Of a DNA stretch of 64,000 nt, positions 22,704-30,441 are shown one piece after another (position 1 is the first letter of the stretch; every line of letters begins with the position of its first letter). Both the position numbers and the translations under genes were made by a program. The DNA comes from an uncultured Chitinophagales bacterium (lineage in GTDB: Bacteria > Bacteroidota > Ignavibacteria > UBA10030 > F1-140-MAGs086): positions 4,566 through 68,565 of the forward strand of contig CAYHPL010000005.1 of the NCBI GenBank assembly GCA_964358705.1. Direction: 5' to 3'. The notes below the pieces were generated by a model. That model did no database searches, was not told where the DNA came from, and saw only the letters and a program-made list of their open reading frames with translations.

Positions 22704-22777
22704 CGGAACGTAGCGCAGCCCGGTAGCGTACTTGCTTGGGGTGCAAGGGGTCGCGGGTTCAAATCCCGCCGTTCCGA
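22704..22777 (+). tRNA. tRNA-Pro(GGG)
   Basis: CGGAACG...CGTTCCG-A acceptor stem, CTTGC-TTGGGGT-GCAAG anticodon arm, GGTTCAAATCC T-arm. Confidence 0.95.
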
Positions 22778-22785
22778 CAACAAAG

Positions 22786-23008: not shown

Positions 23009-24379
23009 ATGAATGATATTGCGGAGTGGGTAAATTTTTTTACAGAACAATGGCACAAGAGAACTACTATTTTAATACTTCTTCTAACTATATTAATTGT
23101 CCTTGTTTACCTCGCAACCAATGTTAAGTTGTCAGAAATAGAAAGGCCCTGGTATTTTCTCATACCAATTGTTTTAACAATTACTTTTGTTGTCTGGAAA
23201 ATTACTACCAATACTCCTAAAGTTAAGAAAGGGAAAGTAGGCTTACTAATTGCAATTACACTTGAAAACCCAAAAAGCAAGAACAAAATTAAATTAGATT
23301 TTACTCATACTCTTTCCGAATTACTACAACACGGAAATTTAAGATACCAATTCAAATTGATTGAACTCAATGATTACCATTCTTTAAAAATAACAAACGC
23401 GGAAACTGCAAATTATTATCTAAAAAAATCAAAATGTCATTTTTTATTATATGGTGTCGCTAAGGAAAGAACTATAAAAGGATCACTTCACCACGTCATT
23501 AACCTTAATGGAATTGTCTCCCATAAACCTATTTCCAAAGAAACAAGTAAAGAATTTTCTAAAGAATTTAATGAATTACTTCCACGGAAAATGACTGTAA
23601 GTTTTGAAGGAGACGTATTTGCATTTGAGTTTACGGCTCAATTGATTGATATAGTAGCTCGTTATATTATTGGTATTGCATCTTTACTTTCTTACGATTT
23701 AGAATACGCGAGAGATCTATTTGAAGATTTACAAAAAAAGATTTTGTCAATTGAAACAAAACTACCGGTTGTTACAAAAATAAAAGCAAGATTGCCAAGT
23801 AGGTTGATTACAACATATGTTGAGCAAATTCAATTAATTTATGATTTATGGATAAAAACACATGATAAAAGAGAATTACAAAAAATGGAGCCGATACTTA
23901 GCAAACTTTTAAGTATAGATGCAAAAAACTATAACGGAAATTTACTTTCTGCAATTTGTCATTTTAGTCTCAATAGAGATATTGCGAGTGCAAAAAAGAA
24001 TATTAGAAACTGTAGAAAAACCAAAGATGGTACTTGGAGATATAGTGAAGCATTTTTGTATGCATACGAAGGAAATATGAAAAATGCAAAAAGAAAATAT
24101 TTCGAAGCGTTCCGTTCTTCTAATAATGACATTACAGTACCAATTCAAATAGAAGAATTCATTCTTGACATATTAGATGAAGAACAAGATAAAATCCAAC
24201 TTTATTTTTGTTTAGGTTTGATAAATTATCATTCAAAGCAAGATCGGGAAGCAGCGAAGAGAGATTTTACACAATTCATTTCTATATGTAATAACTCACT
24301 TTTCCAAGAAGAACTAGAAGAAGCATATTCTTATGTAGAAAAAATAAATCAAGAATTGAATTCCCTTGCAAACATTTAA
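23009..24379 (+). CDS. Hypothetical accessory protein: two N-terminal TM helices, helical/TPR-like C-terminus
   Basis: 456-aa ORF, visibly more AT-rich than its neighbours, immediately downstream of a tRNA. Confidence 0.75.
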   Translation: MNDIAEWVNFFTEQWHKRTTILILLLTILIVLVYLATNVKLSEIERPWYFLIPIVLTITFVVWKITTNTPKVKKGKVGLLIAITLENPKSKNKIKLDFTHTLSELLQHGNLRYQFKLIELNDYHSLKITNAETANYYLKKSKCHFLLYGVAKERTIKGSLHHVINLNGIVSHKPISKETSKEFSKEFNELLPRKMTVSFEGDVFAFEFTAQLIDIVARYIIGIASLLSYDLEYARDLFEDLQKKILSIETKLPVVTKIKARLPSRLITTYVEQIQLIYDLWIKTHDKRELQKMEPILSKLLSIDAKNYNGNLLSAICHFSLNRDIASAKKNIRNCRKTKDGTWRYSEAFLYAYEGNMKNAKRKYFEAFRSSNNDITVPIQIEEFILDILDEEQDKIQLYFCLGLINYHSKQDREAAKRDFTQFISICNNSLFQEELEEAYSYVEKINQELNSLANI

Positions 24380-24392
24380 TAATATTTTTTTT

Positions 24393-24475
24393 ATGAACAA
24401 ACTCACTCAACTCACAAATTTTAAACAACAATCCACTCTCGGCGGCGGAGAAAAACGTATCGAAGAAGAGCATAA
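24393..24475 (+). pseudogene. Diverged copy of the 5' end of the carboxyltransferase gene
   Basis: Matches 25192-25274 codon for codon with mainly synonymous changes; ends where the REP-like element begins. Confidence 0.9.
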
Positions 24476-24479
24476 CATC

Positions 24480-24590
24480 GCATTACCGTAAACGATAATG
24501 CTGAACAAAGAAAGAATCATAAATGATTCTGATTTCACCACAGCAAGATTTATCTTACTTTCTTCGTGCAGAAATACCATTTATGGTATT
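24480..24590. repeat. REP/REPIN-like compound palindrome, left of the transposase
   Basis: Hairpins with TAAA/TTTA loops linked by ctgaacaaagaaag and its approximate reverse complement. Confidence 0.85.
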
Positions 24591-24617
24591 GTGCAAAATG
24601 AGTAAACCAAAATTATT

Positions 24618-25037
24618 ATGAGCCAAGTTTTCTACAAAACATTTTATCACATCATTTGGTCAACGTTAAGTCGTCAACCATTGATTACACCAGAAATAGA
24701 AAAAGTATTATTTCCATTTCTTGAAAACAAAGCAAAACGTTTCGACTGCTCGTTGTATGGAATCGGGGGAACAGAAAACCATATTCACATTGCTATTTCA
24801 ATTCCTCCTCCAAAATCAATCAGCGATGTTATCGGGAAACTGAAAGGAAGCAGTTCGTATTTTCTCAACAAAGAATTACAAATAACAGAAAATTTTTCTT
24901 GGCAAGATGGTTTCGGTGTTTTATCTTTTGCGGAAAAAGATTTAAAAAATATTCTCCATTATATTCACAATCAGAAAGAACATCACAACAATGGAGCGTT
25001 AAATGACGCGATGGAGAAAATAGAACAAAATATTTGA
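24618..25037 (+). mobile_element. tnpA: IS200/IS605-family Y1 HUH transposase (TnpA / RAYT-like)
   Basis: YHIIWST, NHIHI (HUH), KLKGSSS, WQDGFG and YIHNQKEHH (catalytic Tyr); no tnpB present. Confidence 0.92.
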
Positions 25038-25040
25038 ATC

Positions 25041-25163
25041 GCATTACCGTAAACGGTAATGCTGAACAAAGAAAGCATAATAAATTATGCTAACCATTTT
25101 ATTATGGTATTTAGAATCATTTATGATTCTTTTTTCGTTCAGCGTAATCATTTATGGTTACGC
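25041..25163. repeat. REP/REPIN-like compound palindrome, right of the transposase
   Basis: GCATTACCG-TAAA-CGGTAATGC and further hairpins; 25038-25075 repeats 24477-24514 with 1 mismatch in 38 bp. Confidence 0.85.
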
Positions 25164-25191
25164 AAACAATAATTCAAACACAAATTACTCA

Positions 25192-26739
25192 ATGAACAAA
25201 CTAACTCAACTCACAAATTTTAAACAACAATCCACTCTCGGTGGCGGCGAAAAACGCATCGAAGAACAACACAAAAAAGGCAAACTCACCGCGCGCGAGC
25301 GTTTGGAAATCCTTCTCGACAACAATAGTTTTGAAGAAGTAGATGCGCTCGTTGTACATCGCTCAAAAGATTTCGGTTTGGAAAAAGAACAATATCTCGG
25401 CGATGGAGTTATTACAGGAAGCGGCACCATTGACGGACGATTGGTTTTTGTATTCAGTCAGGATTTTACTGTCTTTGGGGGTTCACTTTCCGAAGCACAC
25501 GCCGCAAAGATTTGTAAAGTAATGGATATGGCTATGAAAATCGGTGCGCCAATAATTGGACTCAATGATTCCGGCGGCGCGCGAATTCAGGAAGGAGTTG
25601 TGTCGCTTGGCGGCTATGCGGATATTTTTTTACGCAACACGCTTGCATCGGGAGTTGTGCCGCAAATTTCTGCTGTACTTGGTCCATGTGCTGGCGGCGC
25701 AGTGTATTCTCCCGCAATCACCGATTTTATTTTTATGGCGAAGAACACCAGTTATATGTTTGTAACGGGACCGAATGTTGTAAAAACCGTAACGCACGAA
25801 GATGTTTCGTTTGAAGATTTGGGTGGAGCAGTTACGCATGCAACCAAAAGCGGTGTTGCACATTTTGCCTGCGAAGATGAAATCGAATGTCTGCGATTGA
25901 TTCGGAAATTATTCAGCTACATTCCTTCCAACAATATTGATGATGCGCCAACGATGGAAACGAATGATGATTTCAATCGCGAAGATGAGCAACTTAATTC
26001 CATCATTCCGGAAAACTCGAACAAACCGTATGATATAAAAGATGTTATAAAACTTATTGTGGATGATGGAGATTTTTTGGAAGTGCACGAACTCTACGCG
26101 CAAAATATCGTTGTCGGATTTGCGCGACTTGGTGGAAAATCTGTTGGCATAATTGCAAATCAACCTTGCGTTCTTGCCGGCGCGCTCGATATTGATGCGA
26201 GTTTGAAAGGTGCGCGCTTTGTTCGGTTCTGTGATGCGTTCAATATTCCAATTCTTGTGTTTGAAGATGTTCCCGGATTTCTTCCAGGCACGGATCAGGA
26301 ATGGAGAGGGATAATAAAACACGGTGCGAAACTTCTTTACGCTTTCGCCGAAGCAACTGTTCCGAAAATTACGGTCATTACAAGAAAAGCATACGGCGGA
26401 GCATACGATGTTATGAACAGCAAACACATTCGCGGCGATTTTAACTTCGCGTTTCCTTCAGCAGAAATTGCCGTGATGGGACCAAAAGGGGCGGTGGAAA
26501 TTTTATACCGACGAGATGTAAATGGAAAGAGTAAAGAAGAAGCAGAAAAATATTTTGCAGAAAAAGAACAAGAGTATCGCGAGAAATTTGCAAGTCCATA
26601 CATCGCCGCGCAGCGTGGATATATTGATGACGTGATTGAACCGAAAACTACGCGCCCAAAACTTATTCGCGCATTTCAAATTCTCGAAAACAAAGTAGAT
26701 GCAAACCCGAAAAAGAAACACGGAAATATTCCATTGTAA
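25192..26739 (+). CDS. pccB: Acyl-CoA carboxylase beta subunit (propionyl-CoA carboxylase / methylmalonyl-CoA carboxyltransferase)
   Basis: [45 protein letters not shown] and KKHGNIPL; start MNKL at 25192. Confidence 0.93.
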
Positions 26740-26819
26740 TACAAGAAGGTTACTTGTCCGACTTTTCCGTATTTTTCGACCGCAATTTCAATTTAATAAA
26801 CCGTAATTATATAACTACT

Positions 26820-27032
26820 ATGCCACAACAAGCAACGGACACACTTGATATTTTCATTTCCAAAGCGCAACTTATTACTGCAATAAACAAAATGAAAAAG
26901 AAACAACGCAGTGAATTCATTGAAGATTTGCTTGCCGCAACGAGCCCCGAATATTTAGAAAGTATTCGAGAAGCCCGCGAGGATTTTAAAAAAGGAAGAG
27001 TATTTTCTCACGAAGACGTGTTTGGTAAATAG
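26820..27032 (+). CDS. Putative type II antitoxin
   Basis: 70-aa protein ending SPEYLESIREAREDFKKGRVFSHEDVF; stop overlaps the toxin start. Confidence 0.75.
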   Translation: MPQQATDTLDIFISKAQLITAINKMKKKQRSEFIEDLLAATSPEYLESIREAREDFKKGRVFSHEDVFGK

Positions 27033-27289
27033 TGCTCTACAAACTACTCTACACAAAGCGGGCAATTCGGGACATAACAAAATTAGATGAACAATCTAAA
27101 CAACGCATTAAACTTGCTCTGGAAAAATATTCTATCGCGCCATTTCAGTATGCTGAAAAACTAACAAATTCTCAACTCGGGTCTTTTCGTTTCCGCGTTG
27201 GCGATTATAGAATTATATTTGATATAGAAGATGAATCTATTGTGGTTTTGCGAATAGGACATCGGAAGAATATATATCTGAGTAATTAG
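27032..27289 (+). CDS. RelE/ParE-family toxin
   Basis: YKLLYTKRA.RD..KLD, FRFRVGDYRIIF and VLRIGHRKNIY. Confidence 0.92.
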   Translation: MLYKLLYTKRAIRDITKLDEQSKQRIKLALEKYSIAPFQYAEKLTNSQLGSFRFRVGDYRIIFDIEDESIVVLRIGHRKNIYLSN

Positions 27290-27304
27290 AATTTGTAAAA
27301 TATT

Positions 27305-27373
27305 CATTTCAAATTCTCGAAAACAAAGTGGATTCCAACCCAAAAAAGAAGCATGGAAATATTCCATTGTAAT
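27305..27373 (+). pseudogene. Diverged copy of the 3' end of the carboxyltransferase gene
   Basis: 69 bp matching 26672-26740 with 6 mismatches, encoding [21 protein letters not shown]. Confidence 0.92.
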
Positions 27374-27400
27374 TTGCTTCATCAAAAAAAATTTACATAT

Positions 27401-27437
27401 AAAAAACGCTGAAGGCATCAAACCATCAGCGTTTTTT
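27401..27437. terminator. Bidirectional terminator
   Basis: aaaaaacgctga...tcagcgtttttt between convergent genes. Confidence 0.75.
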
Positions 27438-27456
27438 ATTTGTGAATAAGAATCTT

Positions 27457-30441
27457 TTATTTCATCAACAACATTTTCTTGACACTTACAAAATCACCGG
27501 CAGTAAGTTTGTAGATATAAATTCCACTTGGTAAGTTTGCTGCATCCAATTGTACGTTGTAATTTCCTGCATCTTTCTTTTCATTGTTCAAAAGTGTAAC
27601 AACTTCTCTTCCGAGTACATCATAAACCTTCAACGTTACATTTCTAACAGCTAAAAGCGAAAAGCCAATCACCGTTTTAGGATTAAATGGATTGGGATAA
27701 TTTTGTTTCAACAGAAAACGAGAAGGCGTTGCGGCATTTTCTGAAACCCCGACAGGCGGCAAAACATTAATTACGAACGGAATAAATTTCTGCGGATGAG
27801 AAAAATCGTCGCTTTCAATTGTCAAGGACGCATAGTGCATTCCTTCATTTAATAATGAAGCATTAACTGTTACCATAACTTCACTTGATGATTGCGGTGC
27901 AAGTGTTCCGGTGCCATTTGTCAGAGAAATATATGATGTTGTATTTGTAACTAATTCCTGATAAAAAAACCCACTCGGATTATTGAAACCGGAACCGAGT
28001 ACGCTATCTTTCGGCGGATATGCTGCGAGATTATTTGCCGTTTGTCCATGCAAAGCAACTCCGAACGGAACAGAAATTTGCGCAGTCGTACTGTTTCTTC
28101 CGTAAGTAAAGGAAGTAGCCGCAGACCACGTCGAACCGATGTAGTAAAATTTACCTTCTCTGATATTTACACGAATTGCGCCCGAACTTTTCCATCCTTC
28201 TCCATTTGCTTCTGTACGCAATACGCTGAAAATTTTTCTATACACTCCATCGTGTGTATTTCCTTCATACACAAAGAACGACAAATTCGGCGCGGCGGTA
28301 GAATTTCCATAAAAGCGGATTTCTTTCAGAACTGCATTTGTACTTGCCTGATAGACATTTCCTTTCTCTTTTCCGAATTGCGAAGTAACCATATATGCGC
28401 CAACCTGCTGCGCAGAATCGAATGACGCATCTTCAACAGAAATGCTATACGATAAATTTTTTCCGCCTTCTTCAACACCGTTTGTTATTGTAAAAAAAGT
28501 ATTCAATTGTTGGTTCTGTGGAACAGTTAGCGAAAGCGAATCAGACGAAAGAACAAGAACTCCCGCGCGTTTATTTTTCCATTCATCTGTCGGAAATTGT
28601 ATTCCAGAAACATTATCAGCAAATGTTGCAAAATGTGGAAGCACGTTGGAGGGAATTTCATTGTTCAAATACATAATTCCGTTGTTTGCACTTTGCACAT
28701 CGGGATATGAAATACCGTAGCGATAAGAAAATTCTCCGAGCCGTGTATTTTCCGGAAATAAAATTTCCGTTGACCACACATTATCATTTGCAACAGAATC
28801 ACCGTGTGTTCCATCATTAAATAATTGAACAAGTGTTCCGTTAGTTGTATCACTGAACGTCCAGTTGCCGCGCTCTTTTCCAAGCGGAAGGATATTTCCT
28901 TTCAGCCATAAATTTGTTGCTTCAGAAACAGGGAAATTGTTGTAAATATCTCCTCCACCCTGCACATTAATTGAAAAATGAGCAGTTACGGATTGTGAAG
29001 AACCGCGAGTCAGCCATTTATCAGTTGAATACTTTACTACTGTATCAGCGTCGTTAAAATTTTGTGTATGAACAATATTTTCATTCGATTCATTATTCAA
29101 AAATGCAATGCCGCCATTCATTGTATCCACTCCTAAATATGCTGCTCCGTATTTATAGTGAAAAATTCCTTTCACCGTTCCCGCAGGAATAATGATTTGC
29201 CTCGACCAAATATTATCGCTTGCAGATGAATCGCCGTGAGTTCCATCATCGTACAAAGGAATAAGTGTTCCGTTACTTGTATCGGAATAATTCCAATTAC
29301 CATTATTATTTCCAAGTACCGGTAATTCTCCTTTTATGTACACATGAGAAATATTTTGCAATAATAAATCGGTGTGTGAATCAAGACCATGTGCTAAATT
29401 CACAGAAAATGTTGCTCTGACATTTTTTGCACTGATATTTTGAGGACGATATTTATAAATTCCGTCTCCCTGCAAAACAAAAATAGAATTAGTATCAAGC
29501 GCAATAATTCCATCATTAGAAAAAGAGCCCAATCCGGTTGTCGCGAGACGCACCCACGTTTCTCCGCGATTTCTGGACATCCATATTCCGCGCACTGGGT
29601 CAGAACCTCCATACGTTCCCATATACACATAATCAGGATTGGCAACGGATGTTGTAACTCCCCATGTATTTGTTCCGAGAAAAACAGTTGAATTAATATA
29701 GTTCCACGATTCTCCCGCATCTGTTGATTTTAACATTCCGCCGCCACCGCTAAACCGCGTCGCATACACAATATTATTATCAGTTCTGTCATACGTAATC
29801 ATTGGAACTTCGCCTGAAGTCGCATTAAATTTCTGAGACCACGAAGCGCCCGCGTCAGTGCTTTTCCAAATTCCATACCCATTATCGCCAAGTAAGATTT
29901 CATCGCTTCTGTCCGGGCGAATTTCCATATCGCACATTTCATTAAATTGTCCAGAAGGAATTACACTCCGCACTTCCCAAGTCGAACCAAAATCTTCACT
30001 GCGTAAAAAATTAGCCCCGTTCATTGTGTATAACAGTTCCGGATAATTTTTATCCCACTCCAATGGAACGCCGAAATAGGAAAAATTAAACGTACCTGTC
30101 GTAACCCACGTTTGACCGTGATCCGTGGATTTTTTTATGTAATCTCCGCCTTGTTGCGCAACGACAAATTCATTTGTATCAAGCGGATTGACAACGATAG
30201 TAGAAAGTTGATTCCCTCCTGACACAGTGGAAAAAAGAGACCAGTTATTTCCTCTGTCGCGGCTTATCCAAATCTGGTTATTGCCCGGCGCGGAATAAAT
30301 AATATTATCGTTCAATGGATTTGCAATAAATGGATTTCCTAAACCACCTCCCGGCACTTTTTTCAGCCATTGTGCTGATTGTGCGTGAGTTAAAGTAACG
30401 GAAAAACAAAGCAAAACGATGAACAAGAGTGCTTTTGTCAT
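27457..30441 (-). CDS. T9SS-secreted multidomain protein (BNR/Asp-box propeller, two choice-of-anchor-X-like domains)
   Basis: Signal peptide; S(T/R)D.G.(T/S)W Asp-boxes; duplicated L(Y/F)(D/N)DGTHGDS.A.DN.WS; C-terminal LKQNYPNPFNP. Confidence 0.88.
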   Translation of the reverse strand: MTKALLFIVLLCFSVTLTHAQSAQWLKKVPGGGLGNPFIANPLNDNIIYSAPGNNQIWISRDRGNNWSLFSTVSGGNQLSTIVVNPLDTNEFVVAQQGGDYIKKSTDHGQTWVTTGTFNFSYFGVPLEWDKNYPELLYTMNGANFLRSEDFGSTWEVRSVIPSGQFNEMCDMEIRPDRSDEILLGDNGYGIWKSTDAGASWSQKFNATSGEVPMITYDRTDNNIVYATRFSGGGGMLKSTDAGESWNYINSTVFLGTNTWGVTTSVANPDYVYMGTYGGSDPVRGIWMSRNRGETWVRLATTGLGSFSNDGIIALDTNSIFVLQGDGIYKYRPQNISAKNVRATFSVNLAHGLDSHTDLLLQNISHVYIKGELPVLGNNNGNWNYSDTSNGTLIPLYDDGTHGDSSASDNIWSRQIIIPAGTVKGIFHYKYGAAYLGVDTMNGGIAFLNNESNENIVHTQNFNDADTVVKYSTDKWLTRGSSQSVTAHFSINVQGGGDIYNNFPVSEATNLWLKGNILPLGKERGNWTFSDTTNGTLVQLFNDGTHGDSVANDNVWSTEILFPENTRLGEFSYRYGISYPDVQSANNGIMYLNNEIPSNVLPHFATFADNVSGIQFPTDEWKNKRAGVLVLSSDSLSLTVPQNQQLNTFFTITNGVEEGGKNLSYSISVEDASFDSAQQVGAYMVTSQFGKEKGNVYQASTNAVLKEIRFYGNSTAAPNLSFFVYEGNTHDGVYRKIFSVLRTEANGEGWKSSGAIRVNIREGKFYYIGSTWSAATSFTYGRNSTTAQISVPFGVALHGQTANNLAAYPPKDSVLGSGFNNPSGFFYQELVTNTTSYISLTNGTGTLAPQSSSEVMVTVNASLLNEGMHYASLTIESDDFSHPQKFIPFVINVLPPVGVSENAATPSRFLLKQNYPNPFNPKTVIGFSLLAVRNVTLKVYDVLGREVVTLLNNEKKDAGNYNVQLDAANLPSGIYIYKLTAGDFVSVKKMLLMK

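Follow-up and report, generated by a model that had tools for sequence, protein, structure and literature searches.

Diverged copies of both ends of pccB bracket the intact gene, a REPIN-flanked transposase gene and a toxin-antitoxin pair in an Ignavibacteria genome from groundwater

In a 64,000-nucleotide stretch of DNA (hereafter the window; G000:C5:4566-68565) from an uncultured bacterium of the Ignavibacteria (NCBI GenBank assembly GCA_964358705.1, contig CAYHPL010000005.1), an intact acyl-CoA carboxyltransferase gene of the pccB/mmdA type lies nested between diverged copies of its own two ends. A transposase gene stands between the 5' copy and the gene, and a toxin-antitoxin (TA) pair between the gene and the 3' copy. 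The genome, G000, is metagenome-assembled (3.58 Mb in 57 contigs, rated 100% complete), and the runs that hold it are groundwater metagenomes. Our best reading is that the end copies, here called stubs, are neither functional elements nor left by a self-mobile element. We propose, with a probability of roughly 0.5, that they are scars of homology-assisted, integrase-free recombination between related haplotypes of different structure, and the process is best read as corresponding to the known "insertion with long target duplication". As far as the aligned sequences can tell, the mostly synonymous divergence of the stubs shows that the process is tied to exchange between related strains. Patterns of this kind have been described before.

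RESULTS

Architecture of the pccB nest

The pccB locus, both stubs inclusive, spans C5:28958-31938 in contig coordinates; positions given below without a contig are those of the window, and features lie on the plus strand unless stated otherwise. Repeats were located with a repeat finder run on the window and by self-BLAST of the whole genome, and domains were called with Pfam and NCBIfam. The 5' stub (24393..24475) copies pccB codons 1 to 27 and the start of codon 28, and is identical to 25192-25274 at 76 of 83 nucleotides (nt). This repeat pair begins exactly at the ATG of the intact gene, and the reading frame of the stub runs on into the adjoining repetitive extragenic palindrome (REP) and stops after 32 codons. 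There follow a left REPIN, which is a multi-hairpin REP doublet (24476..24592; fold z -3.1), a Y1 (HUH) transposase gene of the IS200/IS605 insertion sequence (IS) family (24618..25037; PF01797, E 3.6e-26), whose setting is like that of the REP-associated tyrosine transposases (RAYTs), and a right REPIN (25038..25166; fold z -7.8), from which 25 nt lead to the pccB start codon. The intact gene (25192..26739) encodes 515 amino acids (aa) and matches Carboxyl_trans (PF01039, E 1.9e-198). Its 823.9 bits against TIGR01117 fall under the subfamily cut-off; mmdA/pccB is the closest type. The gene was matched in 41 of 41 relatives.

Behind the pccB stop codon lie the motif ACTTTTCCGTATTTTTCGACCGCAAT (26761..26786), an antitoxin candidate of 69 aa from its ATG (26823..27032; the longest open reading frame [ORF] runs from 26754), and a ParE/RelE-superfamily type II toxin gene of 85 aa (27032..27289; ParE_toxin PF05016, E 9.5e-13). 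The 3' stub (27305..27373) then copies the last 22 pccB codons and the stop, with 63 of 69 nt identical to 26672-26740, and its repeat pair ends one base past the pccB stop codon. A strong, bidirectional hairpin terminator (27391..27447; -17.3 kcal/mol, z -7.6) closes the nest. The intervals between the copies measure 564 nt on the 3' side, with the TA pair only, and 716 nt on the 5' side, including the Y1 transposase gene. The repeat finder returned, at these coordinates, exactly the two repeat pairs of the initial annotation, and the nested order of 5' stub, REP-tnpA-REP, pccB, antitoxin-toxin, 3' stub and terminator that it had described was confirmed. Self-BLAST of the whole genome returned no further copy of either stub and no other pccB-like fragment.

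The junctions are crossed by contigs from three studies

The initial annotation had named strain-mixing misassembly as one outcome that would refute its reading. We compared Logan contigs of four runs from three studies with 23600-28200, and drew no conclusion from the uncovered parts in X5 and X8. Run X2 supplied bridging pieces at 23600-24442, 24501-25207, 26490-27282 and 27269-27709. In X3, from another study, 24009-24442 led from the upstream ORF into the stub, 24413-24529 from the stub into the REP, and 26703-27709 carried the pccB end, TA pair, stub, terminator and next gene on a single piece. X8, from the third study, added 24837-25219 and 27282-27592. All of these pieces matched with 0 differences, and together they span every junction, so the check for misassembly was negative. 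No contig joint skipping the TA cassette or the transposase interval was listed, a result that is read with the reservation that contigs cannot show the absence of pop-out forms.

The stubs and the gene differ mainly at synonymous sites

The stubs diverge from intact pccB by 8.4% (5') and 8.7% (3'), and the differences at first, second and third codon positions number 1, 0 and 6 at the 5' end and 1, 0 and 5 at the 3' end. Third positions thus hold 11 of 13 differences (p=0.0002 against a null of 1/3; p=0.011 against a null of 0.5, a generous one that allows for synonymous drift in the live copy), and 9 of the 11 changed codons of the two stubs are synonymous. This distribution indicates that both pccB copies derive from working alleles. 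When the differences were polarised with relatives G003 and G001, changes fell on both the stub and the intact lineages, and those on the stub lineage (polarised by eye on the alignment) lay at third positions in 6 of 8 cases (p=0.02). The acetate-kinase locus described below, polarised in the same way, gave 3, 1 and 7 stub-derived changes and 0, 0 and 5 intact-derived changes by codon position; with the two loci pooled, 13 of 19 stub-derived changes are at third positions (p=0.002).

These figures bear out, with small counts, the earlier claim that the stubs diverged while they were still coding. The synonymous divergence is real, but by itself it is no proof that a cassette supplied a replacement end, since duplication in place followed by ordinary allelic replacement of the live gene gives the same pattern. 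The equal divergence of the two stubs fits an origin from one pair of lineages, again on small counts. A diversity-generating retroelement was considered as a source of the differences and rejected: of the 13 sites that differ, the stub has adenine at 2 and the intact gene at 5, and most changes are synonymous (an assessment made on the alignments, with no search for a reverse transcriptase).

The transposase gene is an old neighbour of pccB

The relatives compared were G001 (another genus, g2), G002 and G003 (also of another genus than G000), and the pccB protein is 96% identical to that of G003 and 92% identical to that of G001. The gene order in G001 is hbd-REPIN-orthologous Y1 gene-REPIN-pccB, and there is no stub. 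From the outer REP edge to the pccB end the two genomes are 82% identical over 2310 nt, and the homology is interrupted between the hbd stop codon and the first REP base. The outer edge of the left REPIN, which in G000 forms the joint with the 5' stub, adjoins hbd in G001; in G000, hbd (C5:1708-2550) is separated from that edge by a 26.4-kb block plus the 83-nt stub. Since the REP-tnpA-REP-pccB unit is contiguous in a genome of another genus, the adjacency of Y1 gene and pccB is old. Judged by this gene order, the Y1 gene is a long-standing neighbour of pccB and not recently arrived cargo, and the novelty on the 5' side of G000 is the junction with the upstream block. The suggestion that an HUH/tnpA module had hitchhiked in as cargo was therefore not borne out. 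Comparison with G003 does not polarise the rearrangement on the hbd side, as an IS-type transposase gene follows hbd there.

The upstream block itself ends in variable sequence. Its last syntenic genes, MerR and a tRNA-Pro(GGG) gene (22704..22778; ARAGORN, Rfam tRNA 64.7 bits), are kept in G001 and G003, while the later genes are not: after the tRNA gene all three family members differ, with ddl in G001, motA/motB-like genes in G003, and a 456-aa ORF and the pccB nest in G000. The block finishes with the 456-aa ORF (23009..24379), whose stop codon is separated from the 5' stub by 13 nt. This ORF has no family match in Pfam, NCBIfam or PADLOC, the last of which returned nothing useful for it, and no DNA match in G001, G002 or G003. 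A relationship to the Schlafen-like ORF of G003 was rejected, as the two proved unrelated on comparison.

Single-copy Y1 transposase genes flanked by REPINs are known as REP/RAYT systems, and the 5' module resembles these in several respects. The Y1_Tnp gene lies between two REPINs, related REPIN copies are dispersed at 13 other places on 9 contigs, and the gene, which is single-copy at the DNA level in the genome, holds the same position in another genus (G001). Unlike RAYTs, however, the protein passes the IS200/IS605 model (NF033573, 72.5 bits against a cut-off of 55) and fails the RAYT model (NF047646, 25.9 against 80), and the REPIN family is small. Subterminal hairpins accompany the gene as in IS200/IS605 elements; it is not multi-copy as an insertion sequence of that family is expected to be, and the flanking 83-nt repeat is not a transposon-type duplication. 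The genome holds 6 Y1_Tnp matches in all. As a side observation, 41 nt within the Y1 gene (24692-24732) are 76% identical to 27288-27328, which covers the 3' joint and the first 24 nt of the 3' stub; both stretches code for an F..LENK peptide, and the resemblance may be chance.

The 3' slot carries different cargo in two genera

The two TA genes overlap by one base, 27032, which belongs to the antitoxin stop as well as to the toxin start, and the toxin scores 28.0 against TIGR02385, whose cut-off is 27.9. The antitoxin candidate has no family match in Pfam or NCBIfam. Among 80 fetched loci with toxin relatives, 12 carry an antitoxin-homologous ORF directly upstream of the toxin gene; identity to the toxin does not exceed 62%, and a pccB-like gene is absent from all 80 loci. 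The gene arrangement is that of a type II TA pair of the ParE/RelE kind, for which toxicity and neutralisation are predicted.

Stubs of the same gene end were found in G003, where pccB is followed by a gene for a 302-aa hydrolase, stub A (123 nt), a DUF4160/DUF2442 pair, stub B (~69 nt) and a radical-SAM gene. Stub B is the more decayed, with 6 of 10 changed codons non-synonymous, and it starts within ±1 base of where the G000 3' stub starts, 69 nt from its end (the -69 boundary). This shared start points to a common ancestry of the slot or to a preferred site, as far as the two junctions indicate. In G000 the boundary lies at the site CATTTCAAATTC, and the 3' repeat opens with a 25-nt identity block that gives way to diverged sequence. 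An 8-bp inverted repeat, AGAATTTG / CAAATTCT, in 27288-27317 spans the joint between the toxin-gene end and the 3' stub, with a weak fold (z -2.4). The radical-SAM gene that follows the G003 stubs lies in G000 on C17 (32493-33230), behind a small retropepsin-like ORF and a 115-aa ORF.

The motif CTTYTCCGTATTTT with its flanks occurs after both G003 stubs and after the stop codon of intact G000 pccB, the ACTTTTCCGTATTTTTCGACCGCAAT of 26761..26786 being its form in the window. Shuffled sequences reached the observed similarity scores in 0, 7 and 23 of 1000 trials. The motif was rejected as a genome-wide repeat: TCCGTATTTT occurs 35 times, mostly within genes. It is probably the ancestral downstream or promoter region. 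Because the motif behind the intact stop recurs behind both G003 stubs, the pccB end, motif and TA pair of G000 look like one contiguous segment of ancestral type, and the 3' stub and terminator would then come from another context.

An order-wide search for pccB 3' stubs covered 277 genomes, of which 227 had a match, and 10 with extra matches were inspected. These extra matches were paralogs or contig-edge fragments, so that in this sample pccB stubs were recognised only in G000 and G003; two short frames (G042:C187, G190:C119) and the remaining multi-match genomes were left uninspected.

Few integrases, no Ku and no donor allele

Tyrosine integrases are rare in this genome. A PF00589 search, which covers tyrosine but not serine recombinases, matched 2 genes in 3.58 Mb, one at C17:69676 and one at C5:71798; the closer of them is ~40 kb off the pccB locus, and none lies within or beside the insert or in the 7.7-kb variable region. 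Ku (PF02735) has no match either, and Ku-type end joining was discarded on this ground in a genome rated 100% complete. These results support the integrase-free route that the initial annotation had envisaged. DprA and a ComM-like gene are present as candidate competence genes. At the nucleotide level pccB is 89% identical between G000 and G003, and the neighbouring syntenic blocks reach 65-80%; this contrast makes pccB a natural place for pairing between diverged genomes to start or end.

The search for empty alleles, also proposed at the outset, was run and found none. In metagenome contigs the 80 best pccB loci were at most 79% identical, with no empty or donor allele and no same-species genome among them, and the toxin loci stayed at or below 62%. 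The two alternatives of the initial annotation, one replacement of the gene interior or one entry at each terminus, hence stay unseparated. Each pccB end is present once in G001, a genome of another genus whose flanks are non-homologous and whose contig stops 250 nt past the gene. In those last 250 nt of the contig (C105), pccB is followed by several palindromic repeats of the GGAGTCCACC / GGTGGGCTCCATC type.

Gene-end duplications recur across the genome

A scan for gene-terminus duplications around TA or transposase genes had also been suggested, and it was positive. Self-BLAST of G000 was filtered for repeats abutting ORF ends, followed by inspection and Pfam annotation; since the filter selects gene-end repeats, the fact that repeat edges fall on termini at these loci carries no independent weight. 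At least 12 further loci carry a 37-173-nt copy of a gene end beyond a cassette. Their cargo includes four TA-type pairs (three PIN-based, one DUF433/DUF5615), DUF3800, ORF6N, Bro-N, REPINs and two large genes. In a stricter test of 3' ends, 10 direct-repeat loci passed, against 1 inverted-repeat locus that served as the control.

Copies of 3' ends were found at a ComM-like gene (44 nt; cargo a 176-aa ORF without family match), Peptidase_M2 (88 nt, 100% identical; a DUF433/DUF5615 pair), DprA (37 nt; a PIN toxin and antitoxin), a fumarase-type lyase (37 nt; ORF6N), acetate kinase (142 nt; a 1035-aa type IX secretion system [T9SS] protein) and an anti-sigma-like gene (173 nt; a 720-aa glycosyltransferase). 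Copies of 5' ends accompany formiminotransferase (112 nt; DUF3800), an ABC ATPase (125 nt; a Phd/PIN pair), an MqnC-like gene (79 nt; a REPIN) and MetH (three stubs; two REPINs and a Bro-N gene). The 5' region of a xanthine-dehydrogenase-type gene is repeated over 95 nt around a weak Y1-like ORF with hairpins, and a UbiD-like gene has a 72-nt repeat around a PIN pair. The 12 loci lie at C3:181523/182114, C4:56272/56969 (Peptidase_M2), C4:128889/129858, C5:120426/121182, C13:33348/33964, C18:15001/15733, C3:63500/64150, C7:98165/98972 (ABC ATPase), C11:27402/30874, C3:154988/157360, C15:75385-76835 (MetH) and C3:58000/58206 (MqnC-like).

Differences pooled over 12 comparisons number 26, 11 and 58 at the three codon positions; ten of the 12 loci contribute, together with both pccB ends and a C10 locus, and the loci of the UbiD-like gene and the ABC ATPase are left out, as are two further metH stubs. 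The C10 locus was itself rejected as a gene-end scar, being a duplicated hairpin around a REPIN with no gene end. At the ABC locus the same stub, cargo and joint occur in G003 (C126) as in G000 (C7), and G001 (C13) has a single copy. In the columns compared, the stubs are 58% identical between the genomes and the live copies 83%. The sharing of stub, cargo and joint by these two genomes implies that gene-end scars can be old. No dprA stub was found beside the displaced downstream block in relatives.

Two further arrangements were noted. Upstream of metH (G000:C15:75301-78700) the first 75-95 nt of the gene recur as three diverged copies; two belong to a 202-nt tandem unit of stub and REPIN, and the Bro-N gene follows the third. 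A GxxExxY-type small gene (G000:C20:20599-21156) is bracketed by 71-nt repeats of a AACCGCAGAGTACGCAAAGG-type element that is also found in tandem at C16:3780-4100; this element looks like a separate repeat family and not a gene-end scar.

Other features of the window

Downstream of the nest, a T9SS-cargo gene (27457-30441, minus strand; Por_Secre_tail by Pfam) is convergent with the nest and shares its terminator. An Rfam search of the stretch matched only the tRNA, and a promoter and terminator scan gave scores not above those of shuffled sequences.

DISCUSSION

Recombination between haplotypes as the proposed origin

We read the stubs as scars left where two related haplotypes of different structure recombined through pccB. 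The central 2.8-kb segment, from the left REPIN through the Y1 gene, right REPIN, pccB and motif to the TA pair, would represent one haplotype, in which this order is contiguous and of the old type. Joints located slightly inward of either pccB end would connect the segment to the flanks of a pccB allele about 8-9% diverged, whose neighbours would have been the 456-aa ORF 13 nt upstream and the terminator and T9SS gene downstream. As the best-conserved gene of a very variable neighbourhood, pccB may have acted as the homologous anchor when related-strain DNA recombined. Beyond the non-homologous cargo, the event may have been completed by an illegitimate joint or through short terminal homology, of the Campbell or ends-in type, and such a joint would leave a brief second copy of the gene end behind. 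Survival would be limited to products that retain one intact pccB. One event, replacing the interior of the resident gene, or one event per end would both be compatible with the data, and addiction to the TA pair would be expected to oppose its loss by recombination between the 69-nt repeats. The pccB anchor and the allele-like divergence are consistent with homology-facilitated illegitimate recombination. The structure, its occurrence in independent samples, the allele-like divergence, the synteny with relatives, the recurrence across the genome and the scarcity of integrases are observed; how many exchanges took place, which way the DNA moved and which enzymes acted are our inference.

Several observations weigh against this proposal. 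Neither a donor-type allele, nor an intact allele of the resident type, nor an empty site was found in the searches described above. Natural competence of the lineage is putative, its dprA and comM-like genes being the candidates for it. Only 13 differences are available at pccB itself, and their synonymous character is also expected from duplication in place with later homologous replacement of the live gene. The common start of the G000 stub and G003 stub B is unexpected from independent illegitimate joints. The fully identical repeats at C4:56272/56969 fit duplication in place, or a near-identical donor, and the presence of 5' stubs beside REPINs at three loci (pccB, mqnC and metH) hints that REP-specific breakage may have shaped those joints.

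Alternative explanations

The principal rival to recombination between haplotypes is a long target duplication of 69-83 nt made in place, with copies identical at birth, after which the live pccB was overwritten by that of a diverged strain; the stubs would then keep the old allele. The perfect 88-nt Peptidase_M2 repeats are what such an event would leave, and the G003 repeat around the DUF4160/DUF2442 pair, which spans the gene end plus ~45 nt downstream, resembles a plain target window. Insertions of this sort, for which no mechanism is known, are on record in the literature (PMC2853133). At pccB, however, the cargo side of the 3' junction opens with a motif that is native to the region downstream of pccB in G003, which suggests that the pccB end, motif and TA pair arrived as one piece. 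On the 5' side, the contiguity of REP-tnpA-REP-pccB in G001 leaves no insertion to be placed between stub and gene, and the equal divergence of the two stubs would need a replacement tract over the whole gene. We regard duplication in place as unlikely here, though a serious contender.

The 5' joint could instead have been driven by a REP/RAYT process, in which the Y1 transposase or a hairpin nuclease cut at the outer edge of the REPIN and joined pccB +83 to it, homologous recombination within pccB completing the event. The joint lies exactly at the REP edge that adjoins hbd in G001, and the layout of stub, REPIN and gene recurs at mqnC (C3:58000/58206) and metH, with three stubs and two REPINs in tandem at the latter. 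The REPIN at C10 is flanked by a duplicated 33-nt hairpin, and the genome has its 6 Y1_Tnp matches. IS200/IS605 insertion, however, is not known to make a target duplication. No conserved target motif was evident by eye beside the four REP edges compared, and the 3' stub and most other loci are without a REP. Such a process is a doubtful explanation of the joint, and a breakage step at REP edges may nonetheless have shaped 5' joints.

Decayed islands borne by an integrase, site-specific for the pccB ends and bringing a replacement end, with everything lost but the TA pair or transposase gene, are very improbable. An att core would account for the 25-nt identity block followed by diverged sequence at the 3' repeat, the common left boundary of the G000 stub and G003 stub B could mark an att site, and the serial stubs of G003 resemble tandem accretion at one. 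Against this stand the 2 PF00589 matches genome-wide, none of them in the 7.7-kb variable region (a search that did not extend to serine recombinases), the many site specificities that the same scar at 12 or more other gene termini would need, and the restriction of pccB stubs to G000 and G003 among the genomes inspected (277 searched, 10 with extra matches examined). Strain-mixing misassembly, or the decay of three tandem pccB paralogs, might be suspected in a metagenome assembly of 57 contigs but is hardly credible, as contigs from runs of three studies cross each junction with 0 differences, the genome holds no other pccB-like fragment, and the stubs end exactly at gene termini and adjoin unrelated DNA.

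Relation to known systems

Insertion with long target duplication of restriction-modification (R-M) gene complexes was reportedly first described by Nobusato et al. in 2000. In the account of Furuta, Abe and Kobayashi (2010), R-M complexes without an integrase or transposase of their own are bracketed by direct repeats of >30 bp and up to ~420 bp that match a single-copy target and in some cases overlap the 3' end of a gene; the species are mostly naturally competent, and the mechanism is unknown (PMC2853133). The pccB locus resembles these insertions in that small gene sets of the addiction type lie between direct repeats longer than 30 bp (83 and 69 nt). An insert below 20 kb with no mobility gene, as in those cases, is found on the 3' side (564 nt, TA pair only) and not in the 5' interval (716 nt), which has the Y1 gene. 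The cargo also differs, being a ParE/RelE TA pair here and PIN-based TA pairs, DUF3800, ORF6N and others elsewhere in the genome, not R-M. Both termini of one gene are involved, and the copies within each repeat pair differ by 8-9%, with nearly all changes synonymous. A literature search on "toxin-antitoxin" together with "long target duplication" returned, in the partial texts it covered, no report of TA cassettes inserted in this way.

A second parallel is found in the type VI secretion system (T6SS) effector-immunity arrays of Vibrio cholerae, in which homology-facilitated illegitimate recombination is proposed to displace old 3' ends, and the orphan tips of Rhs and CdiA are cited there as the same idea (Kirchberger et al. 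2017; PMC5361080). In that account, as we propose for pccB, there is a conserved upstream anchor, an illegitimate non-homologous joint and an old 3' end pushed downstream as an orphan, and successive events build arrays, as stubs A and B of G003 would. The displaced tips of the V. cholerae arrays encode different toxins, and the polymorphism itself is selected; the displaced ends at pccB encode the same core metabolic protein, and the 5' end is displaced too. Phage 21 and e14 reportedly integrate into the 3' end of icd and carry a replacement gene end. They are said to leave the same order of intact gene, cargo and own 3'-end stub differing mainly at synonymous sites, but to be driven by an integrase, whereas the pccB locus has no PF00589 gene at or near it and a cargo of 564 nt.

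Implications for accessory genes in this family

The pccB nest is a clean, contig-supported example of how TA pairs and other small accessory genes find their way into a genome nearly devoid of integrases: cassettes settle next to the termini of conserved genes, and short copies of these termini remain. It goes beyond single published examples in that both ends of one core gene are involved, serial stubs occur in related genera, and at least 12 more loci lie in the same 3.6-Mb genome. Taken together, these loci offer material for working out the mechanism of "insertion with long target duplication", and the synonymous divergence is a useful clue to it.

More tentatively, the stubs may themselves be reusable homology arms, so that a gene end, a cassette and a stub would form an integrase-free mobile unit in this Ignavibacteriales family. 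Such a unit would, on an equally speculative footing, pop out, re-enter or be swapped between strains by RecA-type recombination and be held in place by addiction modules. The -69 slot at pccB, which has the same boundary and post-stop motif in two genera and different TA cargo in each (ParE/RelE in G000, DUF4160/DUF2442 in G003), supports this possibility. If it is true, the ends of conserved core genes would be general landing pads for accessory genes.

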